64,000 nucleotides of DNA from Takakia lepidozioides (taxonomy: Eukaryota; Plantae; Bryophyta): NCBI GenBank assembly GCA_030704615.1, contig CM060732.1:18972001-19036000 (forward strand). Direction: 5' to 3'. The notes below the pieces were generated by a model, which made no database searches, was not told the origin of the DNA, and saw nothing but the letters and a program-made list of their open reading frames with translations. Position 1 is the first letter of the stretch. Each line of letters begins with the position of its first letter. Shown here one piece after another: positions 2,561 to 40,087 of the stretch. Both the position numbers and the translations under genes were made by a program.

Positions 2561-2579
2561 TTAATCACAAATAAATGAA

Positions 2580-4914: not shown

Positions 4915-7900
4915 TCGAGGTTCAGAGGGAGTTGGTAGCTAAGGCGGTGGTGATGAATGAGGTTGGGGATTTTTCTCGGGTTGAGGAAGTCCTCGAGGAT
5001 GAGATGATGGGGCAGGATGAGGCCTCATTGACTGAGCAGGCAGGGAGTATTGCTCAAGAGGTTGCAACATAGCAACCACTGGACGCGTCCTCTACCTCTA
5101 AGCCCACTGGACTTAAGGTTGCAGTTACGGAGGACAATTGGGAGCCTGACATTGGACCCATTGTCACCGGAAGAGAGAGACGACGTATACGGCGGTTCCA
5201 GAGGGCTTACAAGAATTGCTTTGCTTTCAGTTTGAAGGACTTGGGAGCACTGAAGGGTCAAGAGATCTGTATTGAGTTGGCCACTGACACGCCAATCTTT
5301 CGGAGACCCTATAGATATAGTGACATGGAGAGGTCTTTGATTCAGATGAGGACTCAAGATCTCTGGGAGGCAGGTTTGGTGGAGCTCTCTGGTGGAGAGT
5401 ATGCTTCAGCCACAGTGATGCCAGCCAAGAAGGATGTCTATGGCAATTGGACGGAGAGATGTATGTGAGGTGATTACCGGCATGTAAATCGTCAGACCAA
5501 GTCCGATAAGTATGTCATGCCCACATCAGAGGAGATCTTTGATGCCATTGGGCATGCTAAGGTCTTTAGCACTTTGGATTTACGATCCAGATATCACCAG
5601 TTGCCGATCAATGAGGCGGACAAGCAGAAGACGACATTCTGGGGGATCAATGAGCACGGCAAGGATTGCCTATATCAGTGGCGGTTCTTACCATTTGGGC
5701 TTAAGAACGCTCCTGTAGAGTTTCAGAGAGTCATAGATAGGATTCTAGCAGGGGTGGACTTTGCTCGGTGCTACCTAGATGACATCAGCATCTTTAGTGC
5801 TACGGTGGATGAGCATGAGAGACACCTTCAGGTGGTATTGGAGTGCTTGAGAGCGCACGGATTGAAGTTGCATCCGAGGAAATGCAAGTTTTTCCACAAC
5901 CAGATTGAGTATCTGGGTCACATGATATATCCTGGAGGATTGGGGGTACAGCAGATTAAGGTAGAGGCCATTGCACAAATTCCACGCCCCACGGATGTGA
6001 GCCGAGTTCGAGCTTTCATGGGGTTAGCAAACTACTATAGGGATTTAGTGCTATCACAAAGGCTCTAACCAAGCTCACGAAGGTGGACCAGAAGTGGCAG
6101 TGGGAAGATGAGCAAGAATGAGCTTTTCAAGAGCTCAAGGCGAGGTTGACCTCGGCGCCTATCCTGAGATGACCTATCAGGGGGCGTCTCTTTCAGCTGC
6201 ATACGGATTGGAGCATGTTGGGGCTTGGAGCGGTGTTCACATAGGTGGATGATGAGGGAAGAGAGTTCATAGTGGCTTATGCTAGCCGCTCGAACAACGC
6301 TGCAGAGGCTAAGTACAGCTCATATGAGGGAGAATGCTTAGCTGCAATGTGGGCCGTGGCACACTTCAGATGCTATCTATATGACAATCTCTTCACCCTT
6401 GTCACAGATCACCAGCCACTCAAGTGGTTGATGGAGTCAAACAAGCTTACAGGGAAGCTTGCACGGTGAGCACTCATACTCCAGGAGTATGACTTTCAGG
6501 TTGTGCATCGACCAGGTTTGGTCAATCGGGATGCGGATGGACTGAGTCGCAATCCATGCACGATCCAGCAAGATGACACTGGAGCTCGGTGGCATGGTGA
6601 GACGGACAAGGAGATGGTGCTGGGATGGCACGCATCCGCATTTTTGTGTATTTTGGCAGCGGGAGGTCAGATTGAACCCACAATAGGGATGACTGTAGAC
6701 AAAGTGTCTGAGGAGGCTAGTGACGAACCAGGTGGTGCCAGAGATATACATGAGGACTCGGCTGTGTTGGACTACCTCCGTACTGGAGACATGGCAGCCA
6801 CTGTGACTACCAAGGAGAGGGATCGGATCCTGCAATGAGCCAAGAGGTTCAAGTGGGAGGGGATACACCTACTCCGAGTGTGGGAGGATGGTCGGGTGAG
6901 GATTGAGTCTCACCCAACATAGCGTGCACGGTTAGTGCGGCATGCCCATGAAGAGTTGGGGCATTTTGAAGTGCGACGCACTCACTGTTTACTGCAGGGG
7001 CAGTATTGGTGGCGTGGTATGCGTACAGAGGTGCAACAGTTCGTGGCTAGGTGCATGGTGTGTGATAGGGTGCGTGCTTCATTCAACGTCCCTACACCAT
7101 AGTTGCATCATTTACCAATCATGGGATTGGGCTACAGGTGGAGTCTTGACTTTGCAGGATCGTTGCCACTGACTATGCGCCACCACAGATATGTGTTGGT
7201 GATGGTGGAGCACTTCTCCAAGTGGATTGAGTTGGTTCCATTGTCTGACAAGGCTAGTGAGGGGGCTGTGTATGCATTCTTGGATCGAGTGCTTAACCGA
7301 TTCGGTGCTCCAGCTGAGGTACTCACGGACCAAGGGAGAGAGTTCTTGGGGGAGTTTCAGGCTTTGTGTGATAAAGCCTTGATAGACCACCGCACCACTT
7401 CTCGGGATCATCCTGAGGCCGATGGCTTGGCAGAGAGAGTTGTTCAGACGGTGAAGAGGGGTTTGCACAAGTATGGCTTGCTGAAGGGACACCTAGGAGA
7501 TTGGGATCTTCAGGTGTCTTGCTTAGCTATGGGCTATAGGTTCAGCAAGCAAGCATCACTTGCCTCCTTCTCACCATATTTCCTTTTCTTTGGCCGAGAG
7601 CGGGATTTGCCTGCAACCATTCGTAGGGACACTGCTCAAGTTCTTAACCTTGACGATCCGGACGTGTGGGTACGTGTATGTGATCAGCGTGCAGAATTGT
7701 TCAAGAATCATGCCCATGGCTTTTGAGAACCTTGCCATTGCACAACACCGTGACATGTGTAGGTATGCCACTATACGTGGTGGAGGATATCGTCCTGGGG
7801 TTTGGAGGTTTAGCCCTGGTGACTATGTTTATTTGCAGCAGACTGCTCCTACGACCCTGGATGTGACTGCAGGGCGTGTTATTCTGAGGATTCGAGAGGT

Positions 7901-8186
7901 GTTGCCCTCAGGAGTCCTGATCTTGGAGGGTCGGGATGACATGACTTGGAAGGATCATGTGCGTAATTGTGCGCCATGTCACCTTCCCAATGTCGATGGC
8001 AGAATTGACCCAAACTTGGCAGTGAAACCTGCAGGTTTGAGGTGCATGTTCTGTGGGTCTGCCAAAGGGGCAGCCACCATGCTGGTGTGTGATCAATGCT
8101 CAAGAGGTTGGCATATGGGATGCTTGACACCACCTCTTGAGAGGGTTCCTGATGGAGATTGGTTATGTCCACACTGCTTGGGATAG
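4915..8186 (+). pseudogene. pol: Gypsy pol: reverse transcriptase, RNase H, integrase, C-terminal PHD finger (multiple stops/frameshifts)
   Basis: RT: FSTLDLRSRYHQL, LPFGLKNAP, CYLDDI. RH: HTDWS, YASRS, EGECLA, LVTDHQPL. INT: HAHEELGHF...CMVC, SLDFAG, LTDQGREF, DGLAER. PHD: CMFC..CDQC..WHMGC..DWLCPHC. Confidence 0.93.
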
Positions 8187-8446
8187 TGGCAGTGGATATG
8201 ACTAGTGGCAGCTAACAAGACATGGGAGGCCAAGCTCATAGGAGTCAATACACGAGATCCCAGGCTCAAGTTCATAGGTTGCAAGATGGCGACTAACAAT
8301 GGGGCAACTCTTGCACCCGGCCTCTTGATCTATCGAGTTTGAGTGTAGTAGGGACAGTGGTGGAGGACTTAGTGAGGCTACGGTCACTATCATATCTTGT
8401 GGCTACCTGGACTTAGAGGGACCTAAGCACTAGCTAGGGGGGCGAT

Positions 8447-9035
8447 TGTGGTGGACTAGTGACTGCCATAATGGACAGCCTAGCGACTGACTAGTGGCAG
8501 CCTAGTGGTTGGAGTAGTGGCTGGACTAGTGGTATACTAGTGTGTGGTGTGCACATGTGTTGTGTGGTTTTGGACAACGATGTAGTTGTGTAGCGATATG
8601 TATGCGCACGACAGCTGTCAAGTTATTTCACCACTAGTGTGAAACTAGCTAGGAAATAGTTAGCTTTTACATATTGATATTTGGGATTGGCCCAAGTGTC
8701 AATCCAGGGGTCAAGGAAGATTTAGGCCCTGGAGTAGTTATCTTCATGGCAAGCGCGGTAGGCTCATCTTTCTCGAGTTGAGCCTCACCACGCCTAGCTA
8801 TGGCGCCGTAGTGTGGATTCCCCATGGCGTGGGGTGCACTTGGCTTGACTTGTATTTGAGTGATGAGTTTATATATGCATGAGTTTATGCTCAGCTTTGT
8901 GAGCTCGCATGAGCTTGTGTGTATTCTTCTTCTTTAGTGAGGGGTGCCACTACCACTACCACTATGGGTGGGGCACCACTACCGCTAGTGCAGGGCAACA
9001 CTACCACTACCACTACCACTATGTGCGGGGAAACA
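8447..9035 (+). repeat. 3' LTR (589 bp) of the DNMT/PHD Gypsy
   Basis: Begins TGTGG just after the purine tract and ends AAACA; rich in ctagt/actacc motifs. Confidence 0.75.
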
Positions 9036-9036
9036 T

Positions 9037-9202
9037 TGTGGTGGACTAGTGACTGCCATAGTGGGCAGCCTAGCGACTGACTAGTGGCAGCCTAGTGGTT
9101 GGACTAGTGGTGGACTAGTGGTATACTAGTGTGTGGTGTGCACATGTGTTGTGTGGTTTTGGGCAGCAATGTAGTTGTGTAGCGATATGTATGCGCACAA
9201 CA
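9037..9202 (+). repeat. Tandem partial second LTR (first ~165 bp duplicated)
   Basis: tgtggtggactagtgactgccata...tatgcgcac repeated from 8447-8612 with a few substitutions. Confidence 0.85.
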
Positions 9203-9682
9203 AGGGGCATCAAATGCAAAACATCCAAACACTAGGCTCATCCAAGAACACTGTGATGATCACACAAAACATTCTGCGTTTGGCATAAGCCAGCCGTTTT
9301 TTATATTAAGGAATGGGCTAATCTGGAATGGCAAATGGTGGCCTCTTATTGGCTGCCAGGATTTCCTTAAGTTTCTCCCACACACCAGCAGCCACCCTGT
9401 CAGATTAGGTTACTAATGGAATGAGACAAGGGCCTTGGCTAACATTAGGCACATTTAATCAGCTATACCAACCGCCTTGCTTTTCATCCAGCCTACGAAC
9501 AGAAAGGCATCTGTAGCAAGTAGAATACTCCATCTTACAAGCTGCAACATTGATGTATCATATTTTTGAGGTTGTACATTGAGAAAAATGGACTTCAGCA
9601 ACAATTTTGTTGCAAATGAATGGATGTTTACAAAACCAGAAGTCTGTAAGTGGAATGATGCTCCAATCTTCTAATGGCTTAA

Positions 9683-10673: not shown

Positions 10674-10798
10674 TTAACTAGCCTGCAACCTGTATACTAT
10701 AGAGCAATGCTCATTCTATATAGCATTTTTTCTTTTCATACTACAGTATCGAGCTCAAAGAAAGCTCATGCTTTTGCAACTAAATGTATGCACAATTT

Positions 10799-13672: not shown

Positions 13673-13828
13673 CACCAACCATATCCAAAAAGCAAAAAGG
13701 CTCAAATGGCATACAGAATGTCCATATCATAACAACGGAGGTCTGCCTGTGACATTCACAAGCAACTACCGCAAGAGGAATGATTGACCTTAACTGAAAA
13801 TGCTCAAAAGCTGGCCCTAAGCTGGCAC

Positions 13829-13913
13829 TCATCCACCATAGTTACATGCTTTGACACATTACCATGCTGCTTGCGATACTCCGGGTAGTTCCCTACAAAC
13901 TTCAACATATTCT
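13829..13913 (-). pseudogene. Isolated VPS45-like (Sec1/Munc18) exon fragment
   Basis: [29 protein letters not shown] resembles plant VPS45 [28 protein letters not shown] (from memory); preceded by a cag acceptor. Confidence 0.65.
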
Positions 13914-23589: not shown

Positions 23590-24103
23590 GATCGGCGTTA
23601 GAGTGTCATCAAAGGATCTCGGGTAAAAACTAGTGTTCAAAGGGTTCCTCAGGGCTTTGGTGGGCTCATCATCAATCAAAATCATTTGGCCTTTTAGGCC
23701 GTAGGGCTTAGAACTTCTCCCGAAGTGTCCCAAAGACCAACAATGTCTTTAATGTAGAACGGCTGTGTTGAGGCAATGTAGGCATGAAGCTTGGTGCAAG
23801 TATCTTGACACCAGATAAAGCAAAATTTCCTGACCATATCCTTCGGGAGAAGATATGCAAGAAAAGCCTCAACCATATGCTGAACTCCACATGACCATAT
23901 ACCCACATGGTAATGGTTGAACGCAAGTTCAAGAAATTCAAGAAGACCCGGACGAGGAACGACATTGTTCAAATCGTAGGGAATTTTGGCAGAAAGGAAA
24001 TGTTCAAGGAACCTCTGTGATCCAACAGGCTTGGGTTTATAGCACAATAAACCAATAACACTCAGAATGATTAACTTTCTTTGACCTCCAGAGGAGGCCA
24101 TCA
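23590..24103 (-). pseudogene. FCP1/NIF-like HAD phosphatase domain, degenerate
   Basis: RKLIILSVIGLL (DxD lost), VVPRPGLLEFL, HVGIWS, FIWCQDTC, and ILIDDEPTKALRNP after an in-frame stop. Confidence 0.7.
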
Positions 24104-24774
24104 CTTGTGTCTTCCGGCGTAAGAGATTTGCTGCCGCGCTCGCTCGAAAATGGTCATGACCCATCTGTCAAGATTCGACGGTTAGCTTTGGATGTGACCA
24201 TTGGCAGCTGTGTAGTAAAGTAGGAGATGAATCTAGAATTTATGGCGACTTAACCAAAACCGAGTTTGTGCTTCGGGATATAAGTCAAAATGTTGTAAGT
24301 GGGAAGGAAGGGATGGGAGGTCTCCCGTCCAAATACCTCTAGTATCTTTGTCAATTTTGGCGGCGGACACATCCCCGAATGATCTTTGGGCTTGGTTCCG
24401 TCTTCCACATTCTCTCTGTTGATAGACAACCTTGGACGATTAGTTAGGTCTCAACTGAATGAAATCAAGAATGATATACAATTGACTTATAGGTGCAAAC
24501 ACAAACTGAAATGACTAAGTGGAATGGTAGCGCACACCAGGGTTGCACACGTCAGTAATGTCACGTCGGACCTGACGCTGACGCGACCCACGTCACGTCA
24601 GTTTTGCCGAAAAAACAGTAAAACATGAGTTAGGTGAAAAATATGTCACGTAGGTGGACACGTTGTATTCCAAACGACACCTTGGCAAGTGAATGAATTT
24701 TTTTATAAATTACTCCATCCGCCAATATTTGAGGTCATTTTTAAATCATTATTGTTAAATTGGTCGACCTCCAA

Positions 24775-25270
24775 ATGGTGGTGGTCGCAGAATTTATCTT
24801 ATTTTTTAATAGTTGCGACCACCAGCAGAGGGGTTGTCGCAGCATTTTTTGTTTTTTAAAAATAGATGCGACCACCAGCAGGGGTGGTCGCATTTTTTTC
24901 TTTTCTTAAACAGTTGCGACCACCGCTACTGGTGGTCGCACAATTTTTATTTTATTTGTAATAGGTGCGACCACCATCAGGGGGGTGGTTGCAATATTTT
25001 TTTATTTTTTAATATCTGCGACCACCAGCATGGGGGTGGTCGCAGCATTTTTCTGTTTTTTTAATAGGTGCGACCACCAGCAGAGGGATGGTCGCAACAT
25101 TTTATTTATTTATTTAAATTTTTTTAATAATCTCTGTGACCACGAGCATGGAGGTGGTCGCAACATTTTTCTTTTTTTTAATAGGTGCGACCACCAGTAA
25201 GGGGGTGGTCGCAGCAATTTTTTGTTTAAAATAACATGCGACTTCCTCATGTGACCTGGAGCGGTCGCAG
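24775..25270. repeat. Left GCGACC hairpin array (~9 units, ~50-bp period, T-rich spacers)
   Basis: tgcgaccaccagcagggg(g)tggtcgca units at ~24814, 24867, 24914, 24966, 25017, 25069, 25135 and 25186. Confidence 0.85.
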
Positions 25271-25612
25271 CATTGGATTCTGATTCGTCGAGCGTGTGAG
25301 GCTTAGAGGCTGGAGGGTATATAAGGTGGTCCCAATGCCCCTCACTTCTTTTGTGACAAACACTTTTGTGGCGAGTGAATGTTCTCTATTCCTTGAGCAA
25401 GAGTGTAAGCCCAAGAGGAGGGTGCGGACCGTTTGCTGTTGTGGCTTCCACTAGAGCCACTGCAGCAAATTGTCGAAAAGCACAATACTACATGATGCAT
25501 TGATCTACTTGGATTGATGCCGTAGTGTTGGGCCATCGCATTCTATTCTAACTTCTATTGCTCTTGACAAATCTACCAAGTACACTAGTGTTCTTCGTTC
25601 AACCTTAAGTCT

Positions 25613-28594
25613 ATGGTCAGGGTTTTGGGTGTGAGGATGAGGGAGGAGTGGATCCCTTGGTTCACCGTAGACCCACACAAAAAGGACGATATTCAATGCA
25701 ATCTATGTGCATTGAAGCTGGCGGGTCGCAAAGATCGCATGTTATATCACCTCGGTTATAGAGATGCGAAGAATGCAGGGGTTAGTTTGTGCCCAAAACC
25801 CTCCATGCGAGTGAAAGCCCACTTTGCCCAATGTGGAGGCAATATCCCACCGTCTCTTGATGTAGCCGTGGCTTCTGAGCCAAACACTCCAGGTTCGATG
25901 AAAATGTCCCTCAGAGTTGTACCCAGGGGGATTCTTGCGAGGCGTCTGCTGTTCGTGGAGAAGCCGGTGGATCAGGAGCAACACCTGATTGTACGTCAGC
26001 ACTTGTACGGACCAGACCATTGAGGCAACAATCAATGCAATAAGGCTTAAATTTGTCGCACAAGAGGACTCTGGATAAGAAGTGGGCCCAATTTTTCTAC
26101 GAGGCCAATATTCTGTTCAATATCTCGAGGCTTCCTGCGTTTGTGGCTGCTATCAAAGCCACGTCCGATTCCAAGTCCACATACACACCTCCGAGTTATC
26201 GCGATCTCCGCACATGATTGCTAGAAGAGGCTATGTCTGACCTCACCCAAAAGGTGAATGAAAAGACAGGTGATTCTTTTTGGAAATATGGAAGCACTAT
26301 ATGTGCGGACGGTTGGAGTTCTGTTACTAATCGACCACTATTCAATGTCATGCTGGTCAATCTTGCGGGGGAACAATTTTTGGGAAACGTTGACACAAGC
26401 GGGTAGAGAAAAGATGCACGTTATCAAGCAGGGTTGTTGACGAGTTTCATCGATAAAATTGGAGTTGATAAAATTGTCCAAATGTGCACCAACAATGCAT
26501 CTAACATGGTTAATATGGCCGATATTTTGATGGTACGATATCCCCATCTATATTACCAAGGGTGTGCTGCTCACATCTTTGATCTCCTTTTGGAGGATTG
26601 GGGAAAAGAATCATGGATGAAACAACTAGTAAAAAGGCAAAGTCGGTTGTGACGTTCACACATCACATCCCTCTAGCATTGTTTAGAAAGCATGAACCCA
26701 AATACAGCCTTAGGAACCCGGGTGAAACCCGCTTTGCCACAAATTTTTTGATGGTGGATCGACTGGTGACTGTGAGGGCGGGTATGGAGCAGGTGATCAT
26801 TGACCCTCAATGGGATGCGTATATGGGCACCTTACACGACTCTCGTAAGTCCAAGTCTTTGAGCAAAAATCGGAGGGTCCGCGCAATCATTCGCTCCGAC
26901 GATTTCTCGGCGAAATGTGCAAATTTTGTGTACATGGTGGAGCCGGTGTTGATTGCTTTGCGGGAGTTTGATGGAAAACAACCAATAATGGGTAAAACAT
27001 GGTTAATATTGGAAAACCTTGAGAAGCACATGCAATCCTTGAGGCGTCCTCCATTTTCTATGGACGATGATTTGGCGGCAAGGACCGAGGATGCATTTTA
27101 CGACCGCAAACGGATAGTTCGCACGGACTTGCATTAGGGCATTGCTGAATCCATTCTTGCTGGATAATACGGATTTGAGAGACGATGTGGATGCCAAAGC
27201 CGGGCTTGTACGGGTCATCATGCAACTCGCACCCTTGAACATGGCAGAGCGAGCTTTGTCCGAGTACCAGTGCTTCTCGGATCGCCAGAATCCTTTCTAT
27301 GACAAGCCGGATCCAAAAGCAATGAACATGTTGCCACATGAATGGTGGGATATGATTGGAGCTGGAGCAAGAACGTTAGCTCCCATTGCAAAGTGTATTC
27401 TTGCTCAAGTGTGCTCTGCCTCCTCCTGTGAGCGGAACTGGAGCAGTTACTCGTTTGTTCACAACAAGATTCGCAACAAGTTGAATCATGCCAGGGCTGA
27501 CAAATTGGTTTATGTCTACACGAATTGTAGGCTACTGCGAGAGAGGACAACAAGTGACGCATCTGCATGGTACGAGAAGAATTTGTTGTTTGAAGAATCT
27601 ACCTCAGAGGTCCAATCTAGCAGCAATGATGACACTGACGCCGCGAGGGACTCCGACTCCGACGGTTGGGATGGGTCCGATGATGTGGGCAATCCTCCAC
27701 ATGACCCATATGAATTTAATGACGATGATGTTGCAATGCATCCATTCTTTGATGACCTTGTTGTTGATGAACTGCGACATGGTGTCATCCCAATTGCGGA
27801 CCCCCTTCCCCCAGTGGAGCACACTCTCAACAATGAGATTGAGGTCAACTCTCCCCTACCACGAGTTCCACGGACTGCGGGAGATGTGCAGGTCGAATCG
27901 TCGGATGATGACAACCGGCTGTTGTCATTCCTTCACCGACATCGTGCCCATGTGAACCGTGCTTCATCTCACGCCGCTCCATCTCATGTTTCTCTTTCTT
28001 AAGCCGGTCCATCCCATGCTAGTCCATCTAATCTCTCTCACCCTCATGTAATTCCTTCCATCGCTACTCCGATCATGGGAGATGCTTCTTCTGCTACGGG
28101 ACTTCTGCAAGTCGAACCATCGGATGACGACGACCGGCCATTGTCGTTTCATCTGGCCCGACGACGTCCGCATGTGAACCGTGCTCCCTCGACCCCTCGC
28201 TGGTTCATCTCATGCCCCTTCCTCTCATGTCGGCCCCTCTGATATACGTGCAAGTAGCCTTCCTCATACGAGACCTGCTCCAAGGCCACCACGAAATCCG
28301 GGTCAAGCCCAGAAACGGCAGAGAATTGTGCAACCTTTTGTTGGTGACCGACCTGTGAACAGGCCTGATACCCTAGATGGTATTCATGATAGGAGTGAAA
28401 ATCGACCAGAGAGACAACTGAACGTACTCCGAGGACGACTACAGGTCCAACGGCCAGTTGCCTCTGGAAACGAAAGAACAGATGGAGATCATGATTCTAG
28501 CACTGATCATGGGAATGGGGGTGAAGTGAGTGGGGACAAAGATTTTAGACTAGGCATGAGATCATACCATCGTCGTCGTGCCAGACGGAACTAG
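25613..28594 (+). pseudogene. hAT-superfamily transposase (BED zinc finger, DUF659, hAT dimerisation domain), disrupted
   Basis: BED: CNLC..HL..C. DUF659/core: DGWS, VQMCTNNASNM, CAAHIFDL, GETRFAT. hATC: PHEWW, SASSCERNWS, RNKL. Several stops and frameshifts. Confidence 0.92.
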
Positions 28595-28913
28595 GTACAG
28601 CTATAACTTCTGTCACATGATGTGTAGTATGTTTCCATGGATATCCATGTTTCAGTTTGGGTACATGCATACGTGTACGGAAATAAAAATGGTGGAATAT
28701 GTGTACCCAAGAAAGGGTTTGGTGGTTATGCGTGTGTTTGTGTTTCGTCATTACCTTTACATTGTTGATTTCCTATTATGGTTTCGAAAGCCACAAAGGT
28801 CAGGTGCAGCTCCCAACATTCATCTTCCCCTTCACAAATCCATAGGGAGTCGATACATGTGCTTTTCATCTGCCCCTCCAAACATACATACAGGTGCAAG
28901 GGGACCAACCTCC

Positions 28914-30140
28914 TGGTGGTCGCACCTATTTAAAAAAAAACAATTGTGCGACCACCAGTAGCGGTCGTCGCAACTATTAAAATAAAATAAAAATGTTGCG
29001 ACAACCCCCCTGCTGGTAGTCGCACCTATTTACTGATTTAATAGGTAGTAAGTTAGTACGTAGTAAGGGGGGGTTCCCTTATATAGCCTCTCAGGGCGGT
29101 GGGACCCTTCTAGAAGCCCGCCGACCCTCGGAGCCTTATAAAAGGCCTTAAACACATGTCAACCCTGCAGGATTCCCTATTCTAAATTTAGCCAATTCCT
29201 CCATTCTTTTTTTGGACCCCCTCATCTCATTCCTTAATACACGTGGCCTTCATTCATAGGCGCCCCACTCTAATTCCTCGGCCATAGTAATTCCTGGACC
29301 ACTCTAGAATCAGGGCCCGGATGAAACTGCTCTACATATTATTCGCACCTATTTAACAAAAAGAAAAATGGTCCGACCACCCCCCTGCTGGTGGTCGAAG
29401 CTATTTAAAAATAGAAAATTTTGCGACCACCCCCTTGCTGGTGGTCGCTCCTAAGAAAAAATGGTGCGACCACCCCCCTGCTGGTGGTCGCAGATTTTTT
29501 TTTTTTTTTTTTTGGGGGAAACACTTGGGAGCGACAGCTCACAAATCGGGCCTCTTAGTAGTGAGAGGAGTAAATAACCTCTTTCATTTATGCGCCAAGA
29601 GGCGTAGGAATGGGGCACCACACACGAACCATACCACACCAACCAAGTAGCAAGATTTGACCCCAGAATCGTCCGGGTCGCACTCAGTGCACTTAACCAA
29701 CTGAGCTACTAACTATTGGTAGATATTAAAAATTGGAAAATTATGCGACCACCCCCCTACGACCACCCCCCTGCTGGTGGTCGCATCTATTAAAGAAAAG
29801 GAAAATAGTGCGACCACCAGCCGGTGGTGGTCGCACCTATTTGTTTTAAACAAAATTTCTGCGACCACCCCTCTGCTGGTGGTCGCGCCTATTAAAAAAA
29901 AGAAAAATTATGCGACCACCTCTCTCCTGGTGGTCGCACCTATTAAAAATAAAAAATCTGCGACCACCCCCCTGCTGGTGGTCGCACCCATTAAAAAAAA
30001 TAAAAAAATATGCGACCACACCCCTGCTGGTGGTCGCACCCATTAAAAAAAATAAAAATTCTGCGACCACCCCCCTGCTGGTGGTCGCACATAATAAAGA
30101 AAAAAAAAAAAATGCGACCACCCCTGCTGGCAGTCGCAGC
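28914..30140. repeat. Right GCGACC hairpin array (~15 units, A-rich spacers), inverted relative to left array; interrupted by a ~310-bp insert (29032-29342) and a SINE
   Basis: tgcgaccacc(c)cctgctggtggtcgca units at ~29809, 29860, 29911, 29959, 30011, 30062, 30113 and others. Confidence 0.88.
29495..29720 (-). mobile_element. tRNA-derived SINE (~225 bp) with poly(A) tail
   Basis: A box TAGCTCAGTTGG; B-box-like GGGTCAAATCT; 19-nt poly(A) (poly-T at 29495-29513); approximate TSD aatatct/aaaatct. Confidence 0.7.
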
Positions 30141-30567
30141 TATTACTAGCGTGCGCAGTCATGATGACAGCGCGCGCCCTGAGTGTGGAGGGGGGGCTTA
30201 TAAGGCCTTGGAGGCCATTCTCTCCCTCACTTTTCTCCACACCAAGACTTGGTGGGCGATGGGATGTTGCATTCCTTGTCATTGAGTCCAAGTGGAGAGG
30301 GGTGCTATTGGTTGGGTGGGGGGTATTTTGGGCCGTTGGATTCTACGAAATCGATGCTGAGTACCTCGTGGAAAGCCCTCCTCTGGCACCCACGTTTTTT
30401 TTCATTGCACATTGCGTCATATCACTTAGAACTGCCGAGGGAGTGACACGTGCCTCTAGTACTTGGGGAGGATTCATTAAGGAGTAGGATTAGGTACGAT
30501 TTAGGAGGGTTGGGAGAGCATTTTTCTTAGCAAACACCTGTCGAATAAAGGTAAGCCAGAGCCATAA

Positions 30568-33500
30568 ATGACGGAGGAGGAAGATAGAGGAGGTCATCCC
30601 AGGGATGACGATAATGAACCTGGACCTCCAAAAATAAAACCAAAAGAAGCCAGGCGCGAACTTTGTTGGGACATATACAATGACCCCAACATTCTTGCGG
30701 AACCAGGTTGGGAAGTTTGCAAGTTGGGGCAGTGGTGGTCGTTTGGTGACTGCAGGAAATTTGTGGACTGGTGTCACATAAATCGTTTGTGGCCCAGAGA
30801 TAGGCATGATCCACAAACCAAACTATATCAAGCTAGCTTGCATTCCTGCGCCAACCCGCATTTCCGCCACAGGGCAGAGGAGGTACATACAACATTGTGG
30901 GGTCAACCGCTCGTCAACAACAAGGTCCTGTATTTATTTGCGGCCATGTTGTACACAGAGTTAATTTTATTGCAACCAGTGGATTGGCAAACTGCCACTG
31001 CGAGACAACGTACTAGATTATACATGTTCTCTGATATCCTAGACATATATATACGTCAGGGGCAGGACATCATACGGTTCGATGGAAACGACAAGGTGGA
31101 AGAGGGAGGAAAGGCAGATGGAAATGACGATGTGGAAGAAGAAGGAAATGCAGACCAACCTCCAGATTATACGCCGCAACAGATCTCCGCAGCCGGGCCT
31201 TCAACGTCTGAGGTGGAGGGGGGCGAGGTACGCTCTCCGTTGGAGGAACAGCCGCACATGAACGGTACATCAAAGACTTGCAGGACATTGTTCATTTGGA
31301 ACGGTGACAAATAGCGAAGTTGCTGGAAAGAATGGGGTTGGGGACTCTCGACAGCGTACGGTGTGCTTCAGAACCCGAGGCCAATCACCAACGAGCAAGA
31401 CATATTGGCGCGTTTGAATATGTCACCAATGGACATTGACCGCGTCATCGACGGGGTTGACTCAATCGGGCATGGGAATGAAGTGCAAACGTCTGAACTG
31501 GACCCGGCGAGGGTTAAGAAAGAAAAACTTGCGGTGGAGAGGGCAAGCAAAGGGAATGACCCCATAGTGGAAACTGGGGAATGTTCAGCCGTGCAAATTA
31601 CATCAGCCCAAGAACAGGAATTAGAGCAGCTTGTGGGGGAACGCAAGCAAGCTAGGGCTGTTGCATATCGGTACTCAAATGCCATGCAAATCCGATCATG
31701 GTCATGGTTGAAGGGGAATTGGCCGAATTGGGTGACATGAATGGGCCATCTAGCATCGTGGGAAACACGGATAGAAGAAGCGTTGTCCTCCCTCCAACGT
31801 GCAGCACGTTTGTCGAATCGAAGCGTAGATAGCATCTATGCTAATTTGCAAAGGCACGACACTGTGCGTGATGTATTCACGTCGAAGTACACTGGATTCA
31901 TCACATGGGGTGATGTGGATGTCATGTTTGAGCACTGTGTGCATACAATTTCCGATATCAATAACAGCATAAACTGGGATTTGGAAGTAGAGGAGGAGTG
32001 GGACACCAGGCCGAGGATGTCATCCTACATTCATGAGGATAAACGGACGTGGATACCACGGAGCAATCCAGCGTCATGGGTAACAGATGGTACGGTGTGC
32101 ACAATGTGCCTAAACCCTTACGGACGGGAGAGAGGCTATATGCTTGGTTCATGTGGCCATTTGTTCCATCCCGCATGTCTCATATCGGCAGCCATGCGAA
32201 CCAGCCAATGCCCTGACTAGAAGATCCCAACATTCTTGTGAGCTCGCCGTTTTTGGGAGAGAGACGAGACGAGGAGACGCTCGCCGTTCTTGGGAGAGTC
32301 AGCTTGGTCTTAGCAGGCCGTGTTTCAATCTCTGCCTGCTCAGCTGCACCGTGGTGGTTCGATCTCACATACCAATCCAACATTACCTGACTACAGATAC
32401 AAGCAGCACACACAAGGGGTCCTTTTGGGCTGATGGTCGGTCAAATCCTCTATGGGTCATGATACAAGGCAAAGGACAATGTGGTGAGGATACCTTCTTC
32501 TTTGACCTATTTCAGCCTGTTTTGCTCTGTTTGGCAGCATGAAAGTATCCAAAAACAGGTAATAGAGATGAGGAGAAGCTTTGGAATGAACACTTTTCCG
32601 ACCCCAGTCAATGGCGAGACAATGGAGACAAAAAGGTGAATGCATGTTGGACTACACTAGAGAGAAGTAGATGCAATTTAGAATTAGAACTACTGTAATA
32701 ATTAGGGTTGGGGTTTGCTGGAAGAACTTCACGCCGTCAGTGTCAGCTGCTAGCAGCAAGTATTCATGATTTGTACACACACAGGGGTAGCTAAAGGACC
32801 AGGGATAGAGGTCCAGGTTCATCCAAGAGGGTTTTTAAGGTTTCATCCATACTGAATGAAATTTCTGTTATAACCATAACTGGATGATTTACAGGCAGAT
32901 ATGCATTTCAATGCATTTTAGGTTTATGCTCCTTTGATTTAAACCTATTGAATGCCCATTTTTCATCCTGGTCTGATACCATCCATACCGGATGGTAGAT
33001 GAAATCGCGGGTGGTTTTCCTTTAAGTGTCTCTCTGCCCTAGACACAACACGATATCGTGCATGTTTTTTTTCTCTGCAAGAGGGCGATGGCGGACGAAT
33101 GCTCGATGGCGGCTGAATGCCCGAGCAGCAAGATCCGAACGAGTGTGTTCTTGTTTTTTGAACGCGCGATGACGGCAGACACTTTCATCTCCCGCGATGG
33201 CAAATGACATACTGTTATGTTTGCCTACGTTTTTTCCTCATTGATGAAGCAGCGGCGGTTATGGAGGTGGGGAAGCGGCCTGTATTACAAAATACAACCT
33301 GTCCTCAACTCTCCCCCCGTTGCATTCTGTTGTGCTCGTTCAAATTCAGATGATGAACACTGCAGCGTCCTACTCCACAAAAGATTGAGGTTCTTTGTGG
33401 TGTCACATCTATGCTTTCTTTTGCTGGTTCTGTGATCTTTGCATGCTTTATGGCTCATACCTGACATGGATAGCAACTGTGAAATCCTGTAATTCACCTC

Positions 33501-34323
33501 GCGCATCCTCACTAACGCACAAAACATTTTTTGTGTTTGTTTTTGGGACGGGCGCAGGTGAGGGATTTCACTTGGCATGAACTCTTTGGCTTGCAGATGA
33601 TCTGGTTACTGCAGGAGAGATAAGATATGCTGCAAGCTGCCGTTGTTGCAATTTTCTGCTTCAAAGCTGCTTCAAGGGGGATATGCCTTAAACCTTTACT
33701 TTGATTTCTGGTTCTTGGTAACCAAATCTGTTAAGTCAGGGAAGTAAATGGGCTGGGCCTCCTAGAAATCAGACCTTATTGTGAAGGTTCGGGCTGGTTG
33801 TGATGACAAGGGTTTGGTGATGCAAGTGTGACATTGGATGCATTTTTCCAGACCTATTTTCTGGCCTTTTGGAGAGTCAGACAGTGTTGTTTATGCCTCA
33901 CCAGTTTAGAATGTATTAAGTAAGGCATTGGGTAAGCCTTTTTAAGAACACAAACATTCTTTCAGGCTCCCCCATGGAGATTATAACCTGATTACAGACT
34001 GGTATTTTTGAGGATCTCTCTAAAACTTGGCAGAGTGACTGGATAAGGCCCTGGGATACATACCATAGCCCTGCATCTACTTATGGCAGCTTGTGCTTTT
34101 AGGAACATACAAGTCCTTTAAAGCTGTAATAGGGAATTGTTTTCATCAAAGCTCTCACTCTTAGGCCTGCTGGAATGGTTTTCTCAAAGACCATAGAGCT
34201 TATAACATACTTGTTTAAGCTATTTGAACCCAAGAATTACCAAGACAGTATTTTTAAAGGGCTTTTTTGATTACGAACTGTATACTTAAGCTCCCCCCAG
34301 AGATTGGGAATGTGACATGGTAA

Positions 34324-34366
<43 letters not shown>

Positions 34367-36252
34367 CTTTGATACATGATACATATATACATGATTTGTG
34401 CAGAGGCATGGATAGCTGAAGGAGCAGGGATAGAGTGCATGGGTCCAGATTCATCCAAGAGGGCCGGATTTCAATCTCCAGATTACATATGATTCCCTGT
34501 GGAAGGATAGCTACAAGAAACCTGCATGGATAGATGATCAATTGGTTGGTCTTGAGCTGAAGAGCACGACCCCTACAGGGATGTGTCTCCATCTGTAGAT
34601 CTTTTAGGAAGTGGAAGGCTAGGCCTAGGGCCTAGCTTTCTTATGACATTGTTAGCTGATTTTCAGTTCTTCTCCTTAGCTCGGTGCCTTTCTGTTTCCA
34701 AGTTATGGCAGTAGTTTCTGGCTGCAGTCTCTTTTCCTGCTAGACTCTTTAGCTCTATCCAGACCCCCTTCTTTGCTTGCCTTCCTTCTTACTACTCTTT
34801 CTTGTCTTGGTACGCGAAGTTGTGTCTTCCTCTTTCAGCCTCTATGGCACTCTATCCAGAGGTTATTTTTCCTCTTTGTATCCAAGGACATTTTATGTCC
34901 ATTACCTATAAAGTTCTAGAGGCCAATGTCTCCACTGTCCCTCTTTGTTAACAAAAATAAAAAAAATAAAAAAAGACAACAATGGCTTCCATTCTATTTT
35001 CCTAGATACCTAATGAGAATTTAAATCAATTAATAATCTAAATATTATGTATGATTTAATTTATTAAATTAAAATAAATATTAAAAAACCTCTTTAGTCA
35101 TGAAGTTATATACTCATGACTACATCATGGCAACGTGGCATTATATGATACGATATTCTTTCCCACGTGTGGGTTATATATGTTGTCCATGTGGACACGT
35201 GTCACATCCGGAGTGCTACATATGTCTCTCTGACGCCTCTCCAATGGAGTTATACTTTGTAGACATGTAGTCATATAGTTAGTCATATATAAATCATATA
35301 GTTGTGACTACATCCTCTCTACAGCATGACTCCAGGTGCCACGCACGCAGTTACAGCTATGACTTGCAAAACGCAGTCCTAAAGACTAGTCGCTATGACA
35401 GGGCTTTTTTCACTGCACATATGACTATTTTTTTAGTCCTATATGCCTTACGATTTTTTAAATTGGCAGCACTGGGGGGAGACAATGATATGGGATGCTC
35501 CAAGAGAGATGCACGCCTTGGATGCGAAGACGTTAACTAGGGTTAAAGATCCGGTGACCTTTTGGGTGACATCCAACTGGGAAATAACCATGCATGCTAG
35601 AGGCATACGGGACCCAGTCCAAAGGGAGTTTTTTTGCCGGAACTTGGGAGGGCATTGGAGCTGTACCAGACAAAGATTCTTCCGACTGCCTGAGGATCCG
35701 TGGGTGCCAACGGAAAACGACCCATACAATCGCGAATCGATTGGGAGAGACATATTTCTGAGGGAGTTGGAGGCCGCTAGCATCCGTTGGGAGGATATGA
35801 ATGAGACGTACTGGGTGCCTCGTCGGGATGAAGGGCCATTTCTTCCAAAGTTGCGCAGAGACCCCCAGCAAGAGGAGGTGTTGGACAATTTCAAGGCTGC
35901 CATCACGAGTGTTGTAAAGTATTGGCAGAACACATGGCGTGACCAAGTTGCCCCTATTCCAGGGGTGTTCTTGCCACTTCCAAACATATCGGATTTAATT
36001 GAAAAATTTCATGCCGCCGTAGCAAGAGCGACACACCCGGCTCTGGCAAATGTGGAAGAGAGTCAGCACTCGCCTAGAACGTTACGCATGATGGCAAGGG
36101 TGGACCACACAACACTAGGTCCCTCTTTGACCACTCGAGCCCAGGCTAGATCTCTCCGTACTGGTGGAGACACGTCCTCTACACCTGGAGCATCTTCATC
36201 AACATCTGGAGATGACGACAACGAAGTAATAAATCTAGATGAAGATGACTAG
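30568..36252 (+). pseudogene. Large intronless cargo gene: unknown N-terminal globular domain, acidic linker, coiled coil, RING-H2, Trp-rich C-terminal domain; interrupted at 32219-35444
   Basis: ORFs 30568-31314, 31363-31740, 31741-32220 (CTMC..CGHLFHPAC..CPD) and 35443-36252; the missing bridge is retained in copy 1 (1298-1400). Confidence 0.75.
32219..35444. mobile_element. ~3.2-kb secondary insertion (gene-like fragment, LINE-like 3' end with A tail at ~34860-34975, (CT)n, gacta/agtcat-rich end)
   Basis: Absent from copy 1; breaks the RING motif between CPD and CR; termini not classifiable. Confidence 0.6.
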
Positions 36253-36749
36253 AAAAGCTAGAAACGTAGGGAGTAGGCCAAAGGTCTCATGTTGCGAAAA
36301 CATAAAAATGTGCAACCCACTATATAGTCTACGTTATTTTTGGAAATACAAGGTTCATCCTTTGAACCATTTTTGAATGACCTCATACTTGTTTGGTACC
36401 TGTTTGACGGCATGTACAATATACTGACAAAGTTTCAAAACAATAAAAAATTGTTGGATGAAGATACCATTGGTTCATCCATTGCAATATTTTAAATCGA
36501 ACTCATACTTGTCCGATACCTTTAAGAGGGCATGTACAATGCAATGGCAAAGTTTGAAAGCATTCAGAAATCGGCACATCAAGTAACCATTGGTTCCTCC
36601 TGTGAATCATTTCTGATTGATCTCATACTTGTCCGGTCCATGTAAGAGGCATGTAGAACATACTGGCAAAATTTCAAATCATTCAAATTTTTTTTATCAA
36701 GGAACCTTTGGTTTATCCTTTTCACCATTAACGATTAATCACAAATAAA

Positions 36750-38773
36750 TCAACAGACGAATAAATCATTTGCCTCCAAATGATATTTTGGTTTGCTTTG
36801 AGACTTGGCCAGTATATTCAACGTACCATGAAAGAGGCCCCAGAATAATATGAGATCAATCGAAATTCGTTCAATGGGCCAACGGATGGTTGCCCATCCA
36901 AATGATTTTCGTTCGATTTGAAACTTGGCCAATGTGTTTACTGTACCCTCTGATAGATCCCAGTGTAATATGAGATCAATCAAAATTCGTTCGATGGGCC
37001 AGTGAGGCAAAAGTTGTCATCTGGTTTTTGTTCATTGCGAAAAAGAAATCTTGCAATGCGTGCACGGCTATTGCACCCATTGAACGGATGTGGTTGAAGC
37101 CCCTCTTTTGCCCGCATGTGCTTGAACATGTGTGTGACACATGTGCGGAGACACAACAGACGAATAAATCATTTGCCTCCCCATCGACACCAAGCCATTC
37201 CATAATGTAATTGAATTTAAATTAATTTTAAGCCAATAAATAGGTTTGCACTGCCTTTCATTGGGGGTTTCTGGCACGTATCGATTTTGTTTTTTCCTCA
37301 ATTTTTGTTCTGCAGCTTCCAGCATCCCACCACTACTCCCCCGCCAAAATTTGGACCAATCAAAAATGCCCCAAAAAAAAAATGTTCTCTTCGCTCACTA
37401 TTGCAGAACTCTCCTATGAAGAGTGCATGAAGTTGAACACAAATCAAGTTTGGAGTGCAAACACAGGGAAGAAACTCTGTGGTTTTGGGTCCAAATGAAT
37501 TATGTTCGCTCCCAAAATTGGCACGCACGTTGCATATGGCTACATTACACGCCCCATTCAAAAACGGAATGAAAAAAAAAAATTGTGAGCACGCGAAACA
37601 CAGGTCCCAAAGCAATAGCAGATCCAGCGGAATACATTCAACGGGTGAACGGATGGTTGCCCATCCAAATCATTTTTGTTTGCGTCCAAACTTTGCCAGT
37701 ACGTTCGAGACACCCTCTCACAGGTCCCGGACTAATATCAGGTCAATCGAAATTCATTCGATGGCTCAACGAATGGTTGGCCATCGAGATGATTTTGGTT
37801 CGCTTTGAGACTTGGCCAGTATATTCAATGTGTCATGGAAGAGGCCCCAGAGTAATATGAGATCAATTGAAATTCGTTCAATGGGCCTACGGATGGTTGC
37901 CCATCCAAATGATTTTCCGTTCGCTTTGAAACTTGGCCAGTGTGTTCAATGTACCCTCAGATACGTCCCAGTGTAATACGAGATCAATCGAAATTCGTTC
38001 GATTGTGCAAGGAGGCGTTCATTTGTCATCGTGTTTTTGTTCAATGCGAAAAAGAAATCCTGCAATGCGTGCACAACTATTGCACCCATTGAACGGATGT
38101 GGTTGAAGCCCCTCTTTTGCCCCCATGTGCTGGAACATGTGTGGAGACACATTAGACGAATAAATCATTTGCCTCCCCATCGACGCGTTCACCCCTCAAG
38201 CTATTCCACAATTTAATTGAATTTAAATTCATTTTAAGCCAATAAATAGGTTTGCACTGCCTTTCATTGGGGGTTTCTGGCACGTATCGATTTTGTTTTT
38301 GCCTCAATTTTTGTTCTGCGGCTTCCAGCATCCCACCACTACTCCCCCGCCAAAATTTGGACCAATAAAAAATGCCCCAAAAAAAAAGTGTTCTCTTCGT
38401 TCACTATTACAGAACTCTCTATGAAGAGTGCATGAAGTTGAACACAAATCAAGTTTGGAGTGCAAAACAGGGAAGAAACTCTGTGGTTTTGGGTCCAAAT
38501 GAATTATGTTTGCTCCCAAATTTGGCACGCACGTTGCATATGGCTACATTACACGCCCCATTCAAAAACGGAATAAAAAAATAAAATCGTGAGCATGCGA
38601 AACACAGTCCAACAAGTCGTAAAGTAATAGCAGATCCAGCGGAATACATTCAACGGGTGAACGGATGGTTGCCCATCAATATCATTTTTGTTTGCTTCCA
38701 AACTTTGCCAGTATGTTCAAGACACCCTCTCTCAGGTCTCGGACTAATATCAGATCAATTGAAATTCATTCGA
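36750..38773 (+). repeat. Two ~1.01-kb satellite units (orientation A)
   Basis: gatccagcgg at 37621 and 38633; internal ~110-bp subunits. Confidence 0.88.
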
Positions 38774-40087
38774 GGGCTCCACGTGTGCCATGGATGCCTG
38801 CACCCCGTGGTCCTCACATGCTCGCCCCCACTCACTGCCTGTACCATCTCGGTAGGCAGAGAGACCATCGAGGGAAGTATACTCCGCACTCTGCGCTGCT
38901 CAGCCATGGCCAAGCTGATAATCCAGGTCGAGCAATTGAGATCCATTGCTTGCCCCAACACCTGACGATGTGATGCCTCAGAAAGAGAAGGCACCGCCGT
39001 GGTCCCAGTGGAAAAACCCATCGCTTGCTCACGCTCGTCAGCATTAGGCTTTACTAACTGTTGCAACTGAGCATCCCACAGGAGGCCAGGTCCATTATCC
39101 CGGAAAGCATGCGATCCTGGGAAGCTGAGCAGTGTAGGTAGTACTGCTCGTGGTTGACCCACCTTGTTGACCACTGCCAAAGGCGAACGGTCATCGTGTC
39201 TCACACGCTGAGACTGTCTCACTGTGTCCAAAATATTATCCACTATGAGGTGTGCTGGCCGCTGCACCCCATCAAATGCACATTTGAGCAGTGCGGGTGG
39301 CATCAAGTTAGTCCACCATAGCCGTGGACGATGAGCCCATGACCCCACTGAAGCTGCATCCAACAACACTGCTGACCCAAGCCACGACCGGACTTGATGC
39401 ACACTGGCCACAGGGGCAGCCCCTCTTGTGTCCCGACCCCTCGCCCTCAAGGCAAATGGCCGCGACACACACCCCTTCCATCACTCTACCCCGAGAATCG
39501 CCCATCAGTGGCACATTCTCCAAAATGTATGCCGGAGATACAGCTTGATGAAGCTGTAAGTGGCGCAAACCCGTACCATCTCCCAAAACAGATCCGACCT
39601 CGAGTCTCGCAATCCATTGCCATGCCCGGCTGATGAATGCCCTTGGCAAGGCCAACTTGCCACTACCAAGTGGATGGAGCCAATCCACTCCAAATCTTGC
39701 GCCCCCAGCAAGGAATTGTCTGCTGGTAATGTCTGCTAGTATCCACAAACTGCAGACACCGGCAACAACTCAGGGTACTGCTGCACCAACTGAGCAACAT
39801 GGCGTAGGGAGACGCGTCGTGCAGTCTTATCCCTCTCTACATATAGGTAACGCCGAACTCGTACACCTGCCTGTAGCACAGCAGCCAATCCGGTGCTGAT
39901 CCCGCCAAACAAGTCCAGAAGGCAAATGCCTTCATCCGGATACTACCACACAATAGGTGTGGTATCTGTCGAACGGTTTTTACTCACCCATCCCTTCACT
40001 ATCCGAGGTGGAAACTCCAAGATAGAAGAGTTGGATATCTCTAAGCACTCAGCCCGCTCAGTACAATCAGTTATGACCTGCAGCTAG
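38774..40087 (-). pseudogene. C5-cytosine DNA methyltransferase domain, intronless; 5' part of the Gypsy pol polyprotein
   Basis: Motif I LLDLFGGIST (~39893-39922); II YLYVERD; IV VASWPCQGHSSAG; V DSRSDLFWE; VI YILENV; VIII LDAASVGSWAHRPRLWWTN; IX EREQAMGF; X QVLGQAMD. Contains frameshifts and stops. Confidence 0.9.

Follow-up and report, generated by a model that had tools for sequence, protein, structure and literature searches.

The window analysed here, a stretch of 64,000 nucleotides from the moss Takakia lepidozioides, holds a copy, decayed and split by an inversion, of a Gypsy retrotransposon family of bryophytes that has its own DNMT3-like C5 cytosine methyltransferase (DNMT) and a PHD finger at the end of its integrase. 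On the plus strand from 4915, Pfam scans recognised the reverse transcriptase (RVT_1, E 2.4e-30; 5073..6038, including the linker at the start of ORF2), the integrase core with its C-terminal region (rve, E 1.8e-14; 7103..8042) and a PHD finger at the integrase C-terminus, followed by a stop (PF00628, E 1.8e-11; 8043..8186). RNase H, a spacer and the integrase zinc-binding region, with several stops, occupy 6044..7102 on the same strand, as read from the translation and from tblastn matches to the RT_RNaseH-bearing Marchantia proteins P0015 and P0033. The methyltransferase and the start of the ORF1 tail lie on the minus strand at 38779..39966 (PF00145, DNA_methylase, E 1.6e-7), with FGG, PC and ENV readable, two stops and frame changes. 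The rest of the ORF1 tail, identified by loose ends in other copies, was moved off the DNMT by the inversion and lies at 4915..5069 on the plus strand. The first-pass annotation had proposed an intronless methyltransferase on the minus strand and a Gypsy pol with its own DNMT upstream of the reverse transcriptase and a PHD at the integrase end; Pfam bears out both, as do other copies for the second.

The DNMT half and the pol half are one element, separated in the window by a 34-kb inversion. Other copies were taken from sequencing-run contigs, of which X1–X4 represent one sample, and from metagenome loci. Contigs on the DNMT half break off at 38779 into loose ends matching the pol half over its first ~24 nt (13 in X2, 15 in X3), and contigs on the pol half break off at 4914 into loose ends with sequence of the DNMT tail (14 in X1). 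Other loose ends at 4914 carry on a ~1-kb repeat (X1–X4). The earlier proposal that the halves belong together thus stands, with copies from the same organism running from the methyltransferase straight into pol. Whether the DNMT is ever contiguous with the pol start in other copies was checked directly, and contiguity was found at both loose ends. Among 53 metagenome loci, the pol linker comes right after the DNMT in 36, the contig ends there in 12 and the sequence runs from the DNMT into something else in 5; in eight loci the full set of domains up to the PHD is present.

The order gag-protease-DNMT-RT-RNaseH-integrase-PHD is seen in relatives from Marchantia, Calypogeia and Sphagnum; with the protease found upstream in relatives, the Ty3/Gypsy order protease-RT-RNaseH-integrase is present. 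In FastTree trees, midpoint-rooted and built without ordinary Gypsy or host DNMT3 outgroups, so that no donor or order of events is derivable from them, the window groups with Marchantia and more loosely with a Coleochaete pol; none of the sequences compared was labelled Klebsormidium. A scan of viral contigs gave one weak, partial match (L001, 41% over 58 residues), which was left aside. A DIRS or Ngaro affiliation was rejected, as the elements have an rve integrase and target duplications and the Pfam scans found no recombinase family. The literature search returned no report of land-plant copies, of the stop or of the circle route described below, and the main text of the REXdb paper mentions neither PHD, methyltransferase nor Marchantia (PMC6317226).

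The ends of the element are split repeats, in the arrangement A-internal-B-A-B, and two full terminal LTRs are absent. In the window, a polypurine tract (8436..8445, plus strand; the same GGGGGGCGA precedes B1 in related loci) is followed by B1 (8447..8613, TG...CA, ~95% identical to B2), A2 (8616..9035) and B2 (9037..9202), all on the plus strand. The 5′ twin A1 lies outside the window. A plain LTR had been annotated at this 3′ end, which proved instead to be B1-A2-B2. The palindrome GACA-GC-TGTC spans the B/A boundary (8610..8619, plus strand) and is a predicted integrase attachment site. In integrated relatives the element begins with A and finishes with B, B stands ahead of A in none of 12 distinct 5′ ends, and A1/A2 pairs are present in L036, L028 and L004. 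The termini are TG...CA, with a 4-bp target duplication in all five complete relatives, three of which have an intact TG start.

Two further features concern priming and the joints between the repeats. First, a 10–15 nt complement lies inside A1 in 8 of 14 loci (in one of the eight at a second site), only 6–7 nt are complementary in two and none in four; L034 and L036 in this count of relatives are one insertion. Judged from this complementarity, reverse transcription is probably self-primed. Tj1/Tf1 likewise has a PBS complementary to the 5′ end of its RNA, and also a required stop before pol, but there the stop follows Gag and not Gag-protease-DNMT, and the LTRs are ordinary; the portion of that paper covered here mentions no DNMT or PHD (PMC4600332). 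Second, of seven A2/B2 joints (six loci and the window), five read CA (TA in one), a spacer of 1–2 bases and TG, one of the others retains PBS sequence and one a PPT-like end. The window joint at 9034–9038, with CA, one spacer base and TG, resembles a two-LTR circle junction.

The A...B-A-B ends, the TG...CA termini and the 4-bp duplication fit integration from a two-LTR circle that is opened at a palindrome within it. We consider it rather likely, from these sequence features, that the cDNA would close into such a circle and that the integrase would open it at the internal B/A palindrome. An alternative, somewhat unlikely, is that B-A-B formed without a circle, for example by recombination of tandem copies or an unusual strand transfer. 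Just one of the two expected permutations is observed: the mirror product A-B-A-internal-B was never seen, although a two-LTR circle has two identical palindromes. The circle model leaves this absence unexplained; methylation might select the palindrome that is cut. B-only ends also occur (L012, L017, L050), but L017 and L039, a B-A-B locus, have a common 3′ flank, which indicates that the short form can arise after insertion. Further against an origin without a circle, the target duplications lie precisely at the A start and the B end in five of five cases, and the joints hold PPT spacer bases, with primer remnants in two of them. Integration from a circle stays our preferred reading.

Directly after the ORF1 tail, the window has an in-frame TAG followed by CAA CCA (5070..5078, plus strand). 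The first-pass annotation had read one ORF from DNMT to PHD, but the TAG at 5070–5072 is a family feature, and its origin by decay was rejected. Once near-duplicates were collapsed, 31 of 31 loci have a single conserved in-frame stop after the DNMT, its context being of the CARYYA type; these loci are mostly of one family and not independent. Before collapsing, the stop was found in 35 of 36 loci, the 36th being read out of frame, with CAA next in 34. Any other codon is a stop in at most eight loci (36–39 loci each), and the overall rate is ~0.9% (about 196/22,360). The seven TAA variants of the stop may reflect decay after insertion. The window TAG shows no variant at or above 5% in X1–X4, while 5067 and 5080 vary. 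Three families whose linkers are dissimilar all keep Stop-Gln-Pro/Leu; L042, from a fourth family, reads TAG TAG CCA. In Marchantia, Calypogeia and other relatives, seen as protein sequences only, ORFs stop shortly past the DNMT. The stop is not universal, since P0302 and P0057 have none between DNMT and RT, and only these two and P0140 among the relatives have a DNMT sharing an ORF with RT and RNase H.

The window context fits UAG-CAR-YYA, the tobamovirus-type readthrough consensus (PMC3542737), fully, whereas the main peat family, with CAA CCC, matches it at 5 of 6 positions. ORF1 (gag-protease-DNMT) ends at the stop, and low-rate readthrough into RT-RNaseH-integrase-PHD is quite likely. Given the conserved stop in this context, the DNMT is likely produced in amounts like those of Gag, and the PHD-integrase in low amounts. 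It is improbable, in our estimate, that the stop is real but pol is reached by reinitiation, splicing or a sub-genomic RNA. In the peat family, 30 of 30 loci have an ATG three codons past the stop, which makes reinitiation possible there, but neither the window nor the L024/L046 family has a Met at this place. Gene models from Marchantia and Sphagnum skip the stop, yet they exit the frame at differing places, like machine-made introns. Moreover, the reading frame is identical on both sides of the stop, and the Gln codon and the next codon are fixed where the linker has diverged.

The DNMT itself shows the marks of a retained enzyme domain. Its C-terminal part is 58–68% identical to that of the ten best relatives. 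The window copy has a ~70-bp insert at about 39408–39477 that other copies skip. A predicted model (pLDDT 85.6) had DNMT3A as its best Foldseek match (E 1.7e-19), so that by this prediction the domain folds like DNMT3A; an ESM Atlas search returned only generic C5-methylase clusters. The catalytic Cys is kept in 38 of 38 loci and the Glu of ENV in 37 of 39. A dN/dS of 0.19 in the 38 most distant pairs indicates, at the level of sequence, that the DNMT is under purifying selection. Within families, dN/dS was higher for the DNMT (0.40–0.65) than for the RT (0.28–0.52). The domain is intronless, its motif order is not rearranged and its catalytic residues are present. No Pfam scan showed a DUF3444 with this DNMT, and a host gene was rejected: the domain has neither the DUF3444 of DNMT3 nor the rearranged motifs of DRM, and it sits inside a transposon. 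The host PpDNMT3a/b likewise have a DNMT3-type, non-permuted catalytic domain, but they carry DUF3444, whereas the element domain sits between protease and RT (PMC6453930).

Self-methylation of cDNA is our best guess for the role of the DNMT, as far as its sequence and position allow. Packed in the particle in bulk, the enzyme would, with about even probability, methylate newly made cDNA. Retention of the domain for nucleic-acid binding or for another substrate appears unlikely. Its place at the end of Gag-protease would suit a structural function, and in yeast no methylation was obtained with the Gypsy DNMT of Klebsormidium, a result that the authors call inconclusive (PMC5890265). Against this stand the nearly invariant catalytic Cys and ENV Glu, the DNMT3A-like fold and the activity on CG of related DIRS Dnmt3 domains described in the same paper. 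The conserved stop predicts a methyltransferase that is abundant in the particle and acts on cDNA, not a low-level chromatin writer.

The PHD finger takes the place of a chromodomain: Pfam scans gave no Chromo match at the integrase C-terminus, and assignment to the chromoviruses was rejected. The nearest solved PHDs are those of CHD4, KDM5A/B, PHF12, PHF21A and AIRE, and the PHDs of KDM5A/B, PHF21A, CHD4 and AIRE are readers of unmodified H3 tails. A Trp two places before the His, as used by H3K4me3 readers, occurs in 0 of 89 PHD matches. The acidic residue just before the first Cys, as used by H3K4me0 readers, is absent in the window's clade among the rows listed. The PHD would, slightly more probably than its opposite, tether the integrase to histone H3 tails for site choice.

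The first-pass annotation had gone further and suggested a writer and reader pair loosely like DNMT3 and its ADD domain. This was weakened by the layout, in which the DNMT shares its ORF with Gag and protease and the PHD stands at the distant end of ORF2. Gypsy polyproteins are cut apart by protease, and domains on opposite sides of the stop would be made in different amounts and separated. That the two act jointly on chromatin, marking the insertion site, is doubtful. They co-occur throughout the lineage, two layouts having both in a single ORF, the DNMT adjoins the integrase in the RT-RH-DNMT-INT-PHD layout, and the nearest solved PHDs include the H3-tail readers named above. However, in the window family the DNMT lies beyond the conserved stop and ~1000 residues from the PHD, both diagnostic PHD residues are missing within the sets given above, and PHD-bearing Gypsy elements of Chlamydomonas have been described with no DNMT listed (PMC9940879).

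Taken as a whole, the model of a leaky stop, a particle-packed DNMT, cDNA methylation and circle integration at the palindrome is moderately likely. More tentative, and less likely than not, is the full description: an abundant and undescribed moss and liverwort Gypsy lineage with a Gag-level DNMT3, methylated self-primed cDNA, a two-LTR circle and PHD-guided DDE integration at a palindrome. If the circle route is true, the permuted ends with target duplications would exemplify, in nature, a DDE integrase that inserts circles as a matter of routine.

As the earlier annotation held, the class is known from the charophyte Klebsormidium nitens; the stop, the split repeats, the probable self-priming, the inversion and the moss host had escaped that annotation. 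KnitGypsy-Dnmt3 has an intronless, non-rearranged Dnmt3-like domain in a Gypsy polyprotein under purifying selection and, by description, DIRS-like split repeats with B copies flanking the 3′ A. It differs in that its DNMT shares an ORF with RT and RNase H, whereas a stop separates them in the bryophyte family, and in its algal host (PMC5890265). The term PHD has no occurrence in the text and text supplements of that paper, figures such as Fig. 4c being outside this count, and a replication route for the repeats is absent from its sections 9–11. Algal Gypsy polyproteins with PHD fingers have already been described. Gypsy-7a_cRei and REM1 of Chlamydomonas resemble the present family in a PHD proposed to steer insertion, but Gypsy-7a_cRei has left and right LTRs and no DNMT among its listed domains (PMC9940879). 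EpiLTRs are also LTR elements with a DNMT and a chromatin reader; unlike the present family they have a DNMT4-sister domain, DAM and a chromodomain, occur in Cymbomonas and Euglena, and are called distinct from streptophyte Gypsy-DNMT3 (bioRxiv 10.64898/2026.05.21.726589).

With the present family, DNMT-carrying Gypsy elements are known not from one alga alone but also from land plants, among them the model liverwort Marchantia, in which the role of a transposon's own methyltransferase can be tested. Standard LTR finders would miss such elements because paired terminal LTRs are absent, and gene models labelled 'hypothetical protein' contain their DNMT domains unrecognised.

The break in the window copy probably goes back to a reciprocal inversion of 34 kb, with the element and the ~1-kb repeat as its partners. 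Both halves adjoin this repeat (3910–4912 versus 38783–37773, 94.5% identity, opposite strands), as a tandem unit at 3649..4914 on the plus strand, the left inversion partner, and as matching sequence at 36785..38778 on the minus strand, the right partner. The CCTCGA formerly taken as the shared joint is not the true one, TCGA on the DNMT side being repeat sequence, and its reading as a target duplication was rejected. The one-base frame offset arose because each partner lost about 4–6 bases at the break. An assembly error has little probability: neither window junction is bridged among the contigs listed, high-copy repeats hold both breakpoints and the orientation flips again at 3648, but the two junctions are reciprocal with only a few bases lost per partner, and the window has no N. 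Conclusions at the family level are independent of this choice.

As had been claimed, the copy is dead, with 10 in-frame stops beyond the TAG at 5070–5072 in the frames read, several frame changes and the DNMT insert. It is not reconstructable from its two halves as had been thought, since tblastn with gag-protease-bearing relatives found neither gag nor protease in the 64 kb. The DNMT half had been started at 40087; its start is near 39966. The alignments of 10 of 11 relatives are not directly informative on this start; those of P0004, P0030 and P0029 begin at 39963–39972, that of P0012 reaches 40005 weakly and that of P0002 reaches 40080; a further comparison gave no alignment with relatives above ~39966. 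Just upstream of DNMT motif I lies the LTR of an unrelated nested element (39967..40950, minus strand), of which the DNMT is not a part. It is marked by a polypurine tract at ~40952–40966 followed by a TG start, and by a PBS-like loose end at 39967 in three contigs of X5.

A Pfam scan of the window placed a C5-methyltransferase on the minus strand (DNA_methylase, E 1.6e-7). On the plus strand lies a Gypsy pol, which matched RVT_1, rve and PHD. The same ~1-kb tandem repeat adjoins both halves in opposite orientation (3910-4912 versus 38783-37773, 94.5%), and element and repeat would both become continuous once a single inversion of about 4915-38779 is reversed. Contiguity was checked in public contigs from sequencing runs (X1-X4 represent a single sample). 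Loose contig ends at 38779, in the methyltransferase (DNMT) half, agree with the start of the pol half (13 in X2, 15 in X3), and those at 4914, in the pol half, match the DNMT tail (14 in X1) or continue into the repeat. Thus the DNMT and pol halves form one element, as the first-pass annotation had proposed, and since the loose ends link both halves, the DNMT is found contiguous with pol in other copies. Each inversion partner is short of approximately 4-6 bases at the breakpoint; on the DNMT side, the joint's TCGA is part of the repeat. Therefore, CCTCGA is not a shared joint as previously read, and the frame offset noted there is accounted for by these two circumstances. Among the contigs listed none spans the window's own two junctions, so there is a small probability that the separation of the halves is an assembly error.

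The DNMT half starts near 39966 rather than at 40087. Alignments of the related proteins P0004, P0030 and P0029 begin at 39963-39972, those of P0012 and P0002 reach weakly to 40005 and 40080, respectively, and the stretch upstream of ~39966 gave no alignment with relatives. From 39967 it is occupied by the LTR of a nested element on the minus strand, with a PBS-like loose end at 39967 and a polypurine tract at ~40952-40966. This nested element (39967-43552) has a 191-bp tandem array and, directly before the polypurine tract, a 568-aa ORF without a Pfam match; its 5′ LTR lies outside the window. No gag, protease or 5′ repeat of the Gypsy copy was found within the 64-kb window, so the complete element cannot be rebuilt from its two halves as had been suggested, and the copy is indeed dead.

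The DNMT piece as query retrieved 35 longer proteins, including models from Calypogeia, Marchantia and Sphagnum. In several of the 35, gag-, CCHC- and protease-like sequence precedes the DNMT, and RT, RNase H or integrase follows it. The integrase-PHD piece retrieved 53 proteins from the same three genera and others, among them a Coleochaete pol. A metagenome scan yielded 53 loci; the pol linker lies directly 3′ of the DNMT in 36, the contig ends right after the DNMT in 12 and other sequence follows in 5, while 8 contain all domains through the PHD. By sequence, the main locus family is Sphagnum-type, and locus L004 resembles the S. fallax model P0030 as far as the RT start. An exhaustive search returned 851 proteins at E ≤ 0.001, in many of which RNase H and integrase flank the DNMT. 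This second widespread layout, RT-RNaseH-DNMT-integrase-PHD, occurs in P0062, P0063, P0077, P0083, P0122, P0182 and others, with an additional Tudor (P0123) or G-patch (P0129) domain in some. In trees that both lack a proper outgroup, RT sequences with the DNMT before RT form one clade with the window, Marchantia and Coleochaete (support 0.989), and all but one of its members group together by DNMT (0.951). The DNMT position appears to have shifted within the lineage.

DNMT-carrying Gypsy elements are already known from Klebsormidium (KnitGypsy-Dnmt3); the variant in land plants appears to be new. The text of de Mendoza et al. (2018, PMC5890265), whose supplementary figures may show a PHD or bryophyte sequences, describes DIRS-like repeats and a DNMT within the RT ORF, whereas in the window family a stop separates DNMT and RT. 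Later literature, in its accessible text, names "streptophyte" DNMT3 retrotransposons, citing or contrasting that study. The searchable literature, which excludes subscription papers, Repbase, theses and bioRxiv supplements, contained no account of copies in bryophytes, of the stop or of integration from a circle; term searches in the accessible text of papers on REXdb, on the methylome of Marchantia, on epigenetics in land plants and on moss DNMT3 were equally negative for all three. Two testable mechanistic features are added to the first-pass annotation.

For the methyltransferase (METHYLTRANSFERASE), a search of solved sequences with the natural intact relative P0010 gave DNMT3A as best match (E 7e-11), compared with 1e-3 for the plant enzyme 4onj, which we take to be DRM2, and 1e-2 for M.HhaI. 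Its predicted fold (mean pLDDT 85.6) again had DNMT3A as top Foldseek match (E 1.7e-19). Among non-redundant loci, all 38 that could be compared retain the catalytic Cys, and 37 of 39 the Glu of ENV. For the DNMT, dN/dS was 0.19 across the most distant pairs (38) but 0.40–0.65 in closer pairs, versus 0.28–0.52 for RT. Methyltransferase activity is predicted from fold, motifs and selection. Yeast expression of the Klebsormidium domain, as described in the text of de Mendoza et al. (2018, PMC5890265), gave no methylation and was inconclusive.

The window carries an in-frame stop, TAG CAA CCA, at 5070-5078 (plus strand), where four runs of one sample list no variant of at least 5%, although 5067 and 5080 do vary. 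An in-frame TAG or TAA occupies the equivalent position in 35 of 36 loci, the 36th being read out of frame, and is followed by CAA CCC (30), CAA CTA (2), CAA CCA, CAA CTC or TAG CCA (1 each). Collapsing near-duplicates reduced the 51 aligned loci to 42. Of these non-redundant loci, 31 cover the site and 31/31 have the stop; any other codon had at most 8 stops (36–39 loci each; background ~0.9%). Marchantia, Calypogeia and further ORFs, available as protein sequences only, stop shortly 3′ of the DNMT. Marchantia and Sphagnum gene models (P0005, P0006, P0015, P0030) jump from DNMT to pol linker at differing sites, as if their introns were contrived to bypass the stop. The window sequence corresponds to the tobamovirus-type readthrough consensus UAG-CAR-YYA, as given in the accessible text of PMC3542737, and a stop before pol is reported to be required in Tj1 (PMC4600332, accessible text). 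We infer that pol is made by readthrough of the conserved stop. Against this, the stop-bearing loci are mostly of a single family, an ATG lies at +3 in 30/30 main-family loci (none in the window or in loci L024/L046), and the proteins P0057 and P0302 have no stop between DNMT and RT. If readthrough holds true, the DNMT would be made at Gag level and enter the particle, the site of cDNA synthesis, and integrase-PHD would be scarce.

The element ends in split direct repeats, A and B. At the window's 3′ end the PPT is followed by B1 (8447-8613), A2 (8616-9035) and B2 (9037-9202). Complete relatives read A1-internal-PPT-B1-A2-B2 (loci L036, L028) or end after B1; a 4-bp target duplication surrounds the A start and B end in 5/5 complete copies, and at none of the 12 distinct 5′ ends does B precede A. 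A palindrome, GACA-GC-TGTC, forms the B|A boundary, in the window as well. Five of seven A2/B2 joints (six loci and the window) consist of CA (TA in one), a spacer of 1–2 bases resembling the base(s) after the PPT, and TG; of the other two, one retains PBS sequence and the second has a PPT-like end. A two-LTR circle opened at the left palindrome would yield the A-internal-B-A-B ends and these joints. Opening at the right palindrome was never seen among relatives, for which the circle model gives no reason. Loci L017 (13310-13422) and L039 (7606-8171) share a 3′ flank, with B-only and B-A-B ends respectively, and so the short B-only form can arise later; both have an ~800-bp insert directly 3′ of the PHD. 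No tRNA-type PBS was found 3′ of A1 in the relatives' loci. In 8 of 14 loci, the 10–15 bases after A1 have their complement within A1 itself (6–7 bases in 2 loci, none in 4), in most ~30 bases 3′ of a TATA-like box, which suggests self-priming.

The closest solved relatives of the PHD finger are CHD4, KDM5A/B, PHF12 and PHF21A. Of the 89 pattern matches, 81 carry Asp following the third Cys and none carries Trp at His-2; in the window-clade rows displayed, no acidic residue immediately precedes the first Cys. Following general PHD binding rules, the finger would recognise the H3 N-terminus, with no cage for K4me3. Writer-reader coupling like that of DNMT3-ADD, as first envisaged, is unlikely in this layout. 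The likeliest role is integration targeting, as proposed for the PHD of Chlamydomonas Gypsy-7a (PMC9940879, accessible text).

Elsewhere in the window, an unclassified element occurs twice (1-3647 and 28450-37823). It carries a RING-finger ORF (31741-32217, zf-RING_2 E 1.3e-6) and a ~1-kb tandem unit of 120-bp subrepeats; orientation changes a second time at 3648. Remnants of a hAT-type transposase lie within 24737-30145 (Dimer_Tnp_hAT 27118-27999), between inverted 51-bp repeat arrays, and a NIF-like phosphatase fragment (23697-24167, minus strand, E 1e-6) within the inverted segment. A probable moss host is indicated by a flanking, intact-looking VQ-motif gene at 51625-52776 (plus strand), which has its closest named matches in Ceratodon purpureus (62%) and Sphagnum (47–55%).
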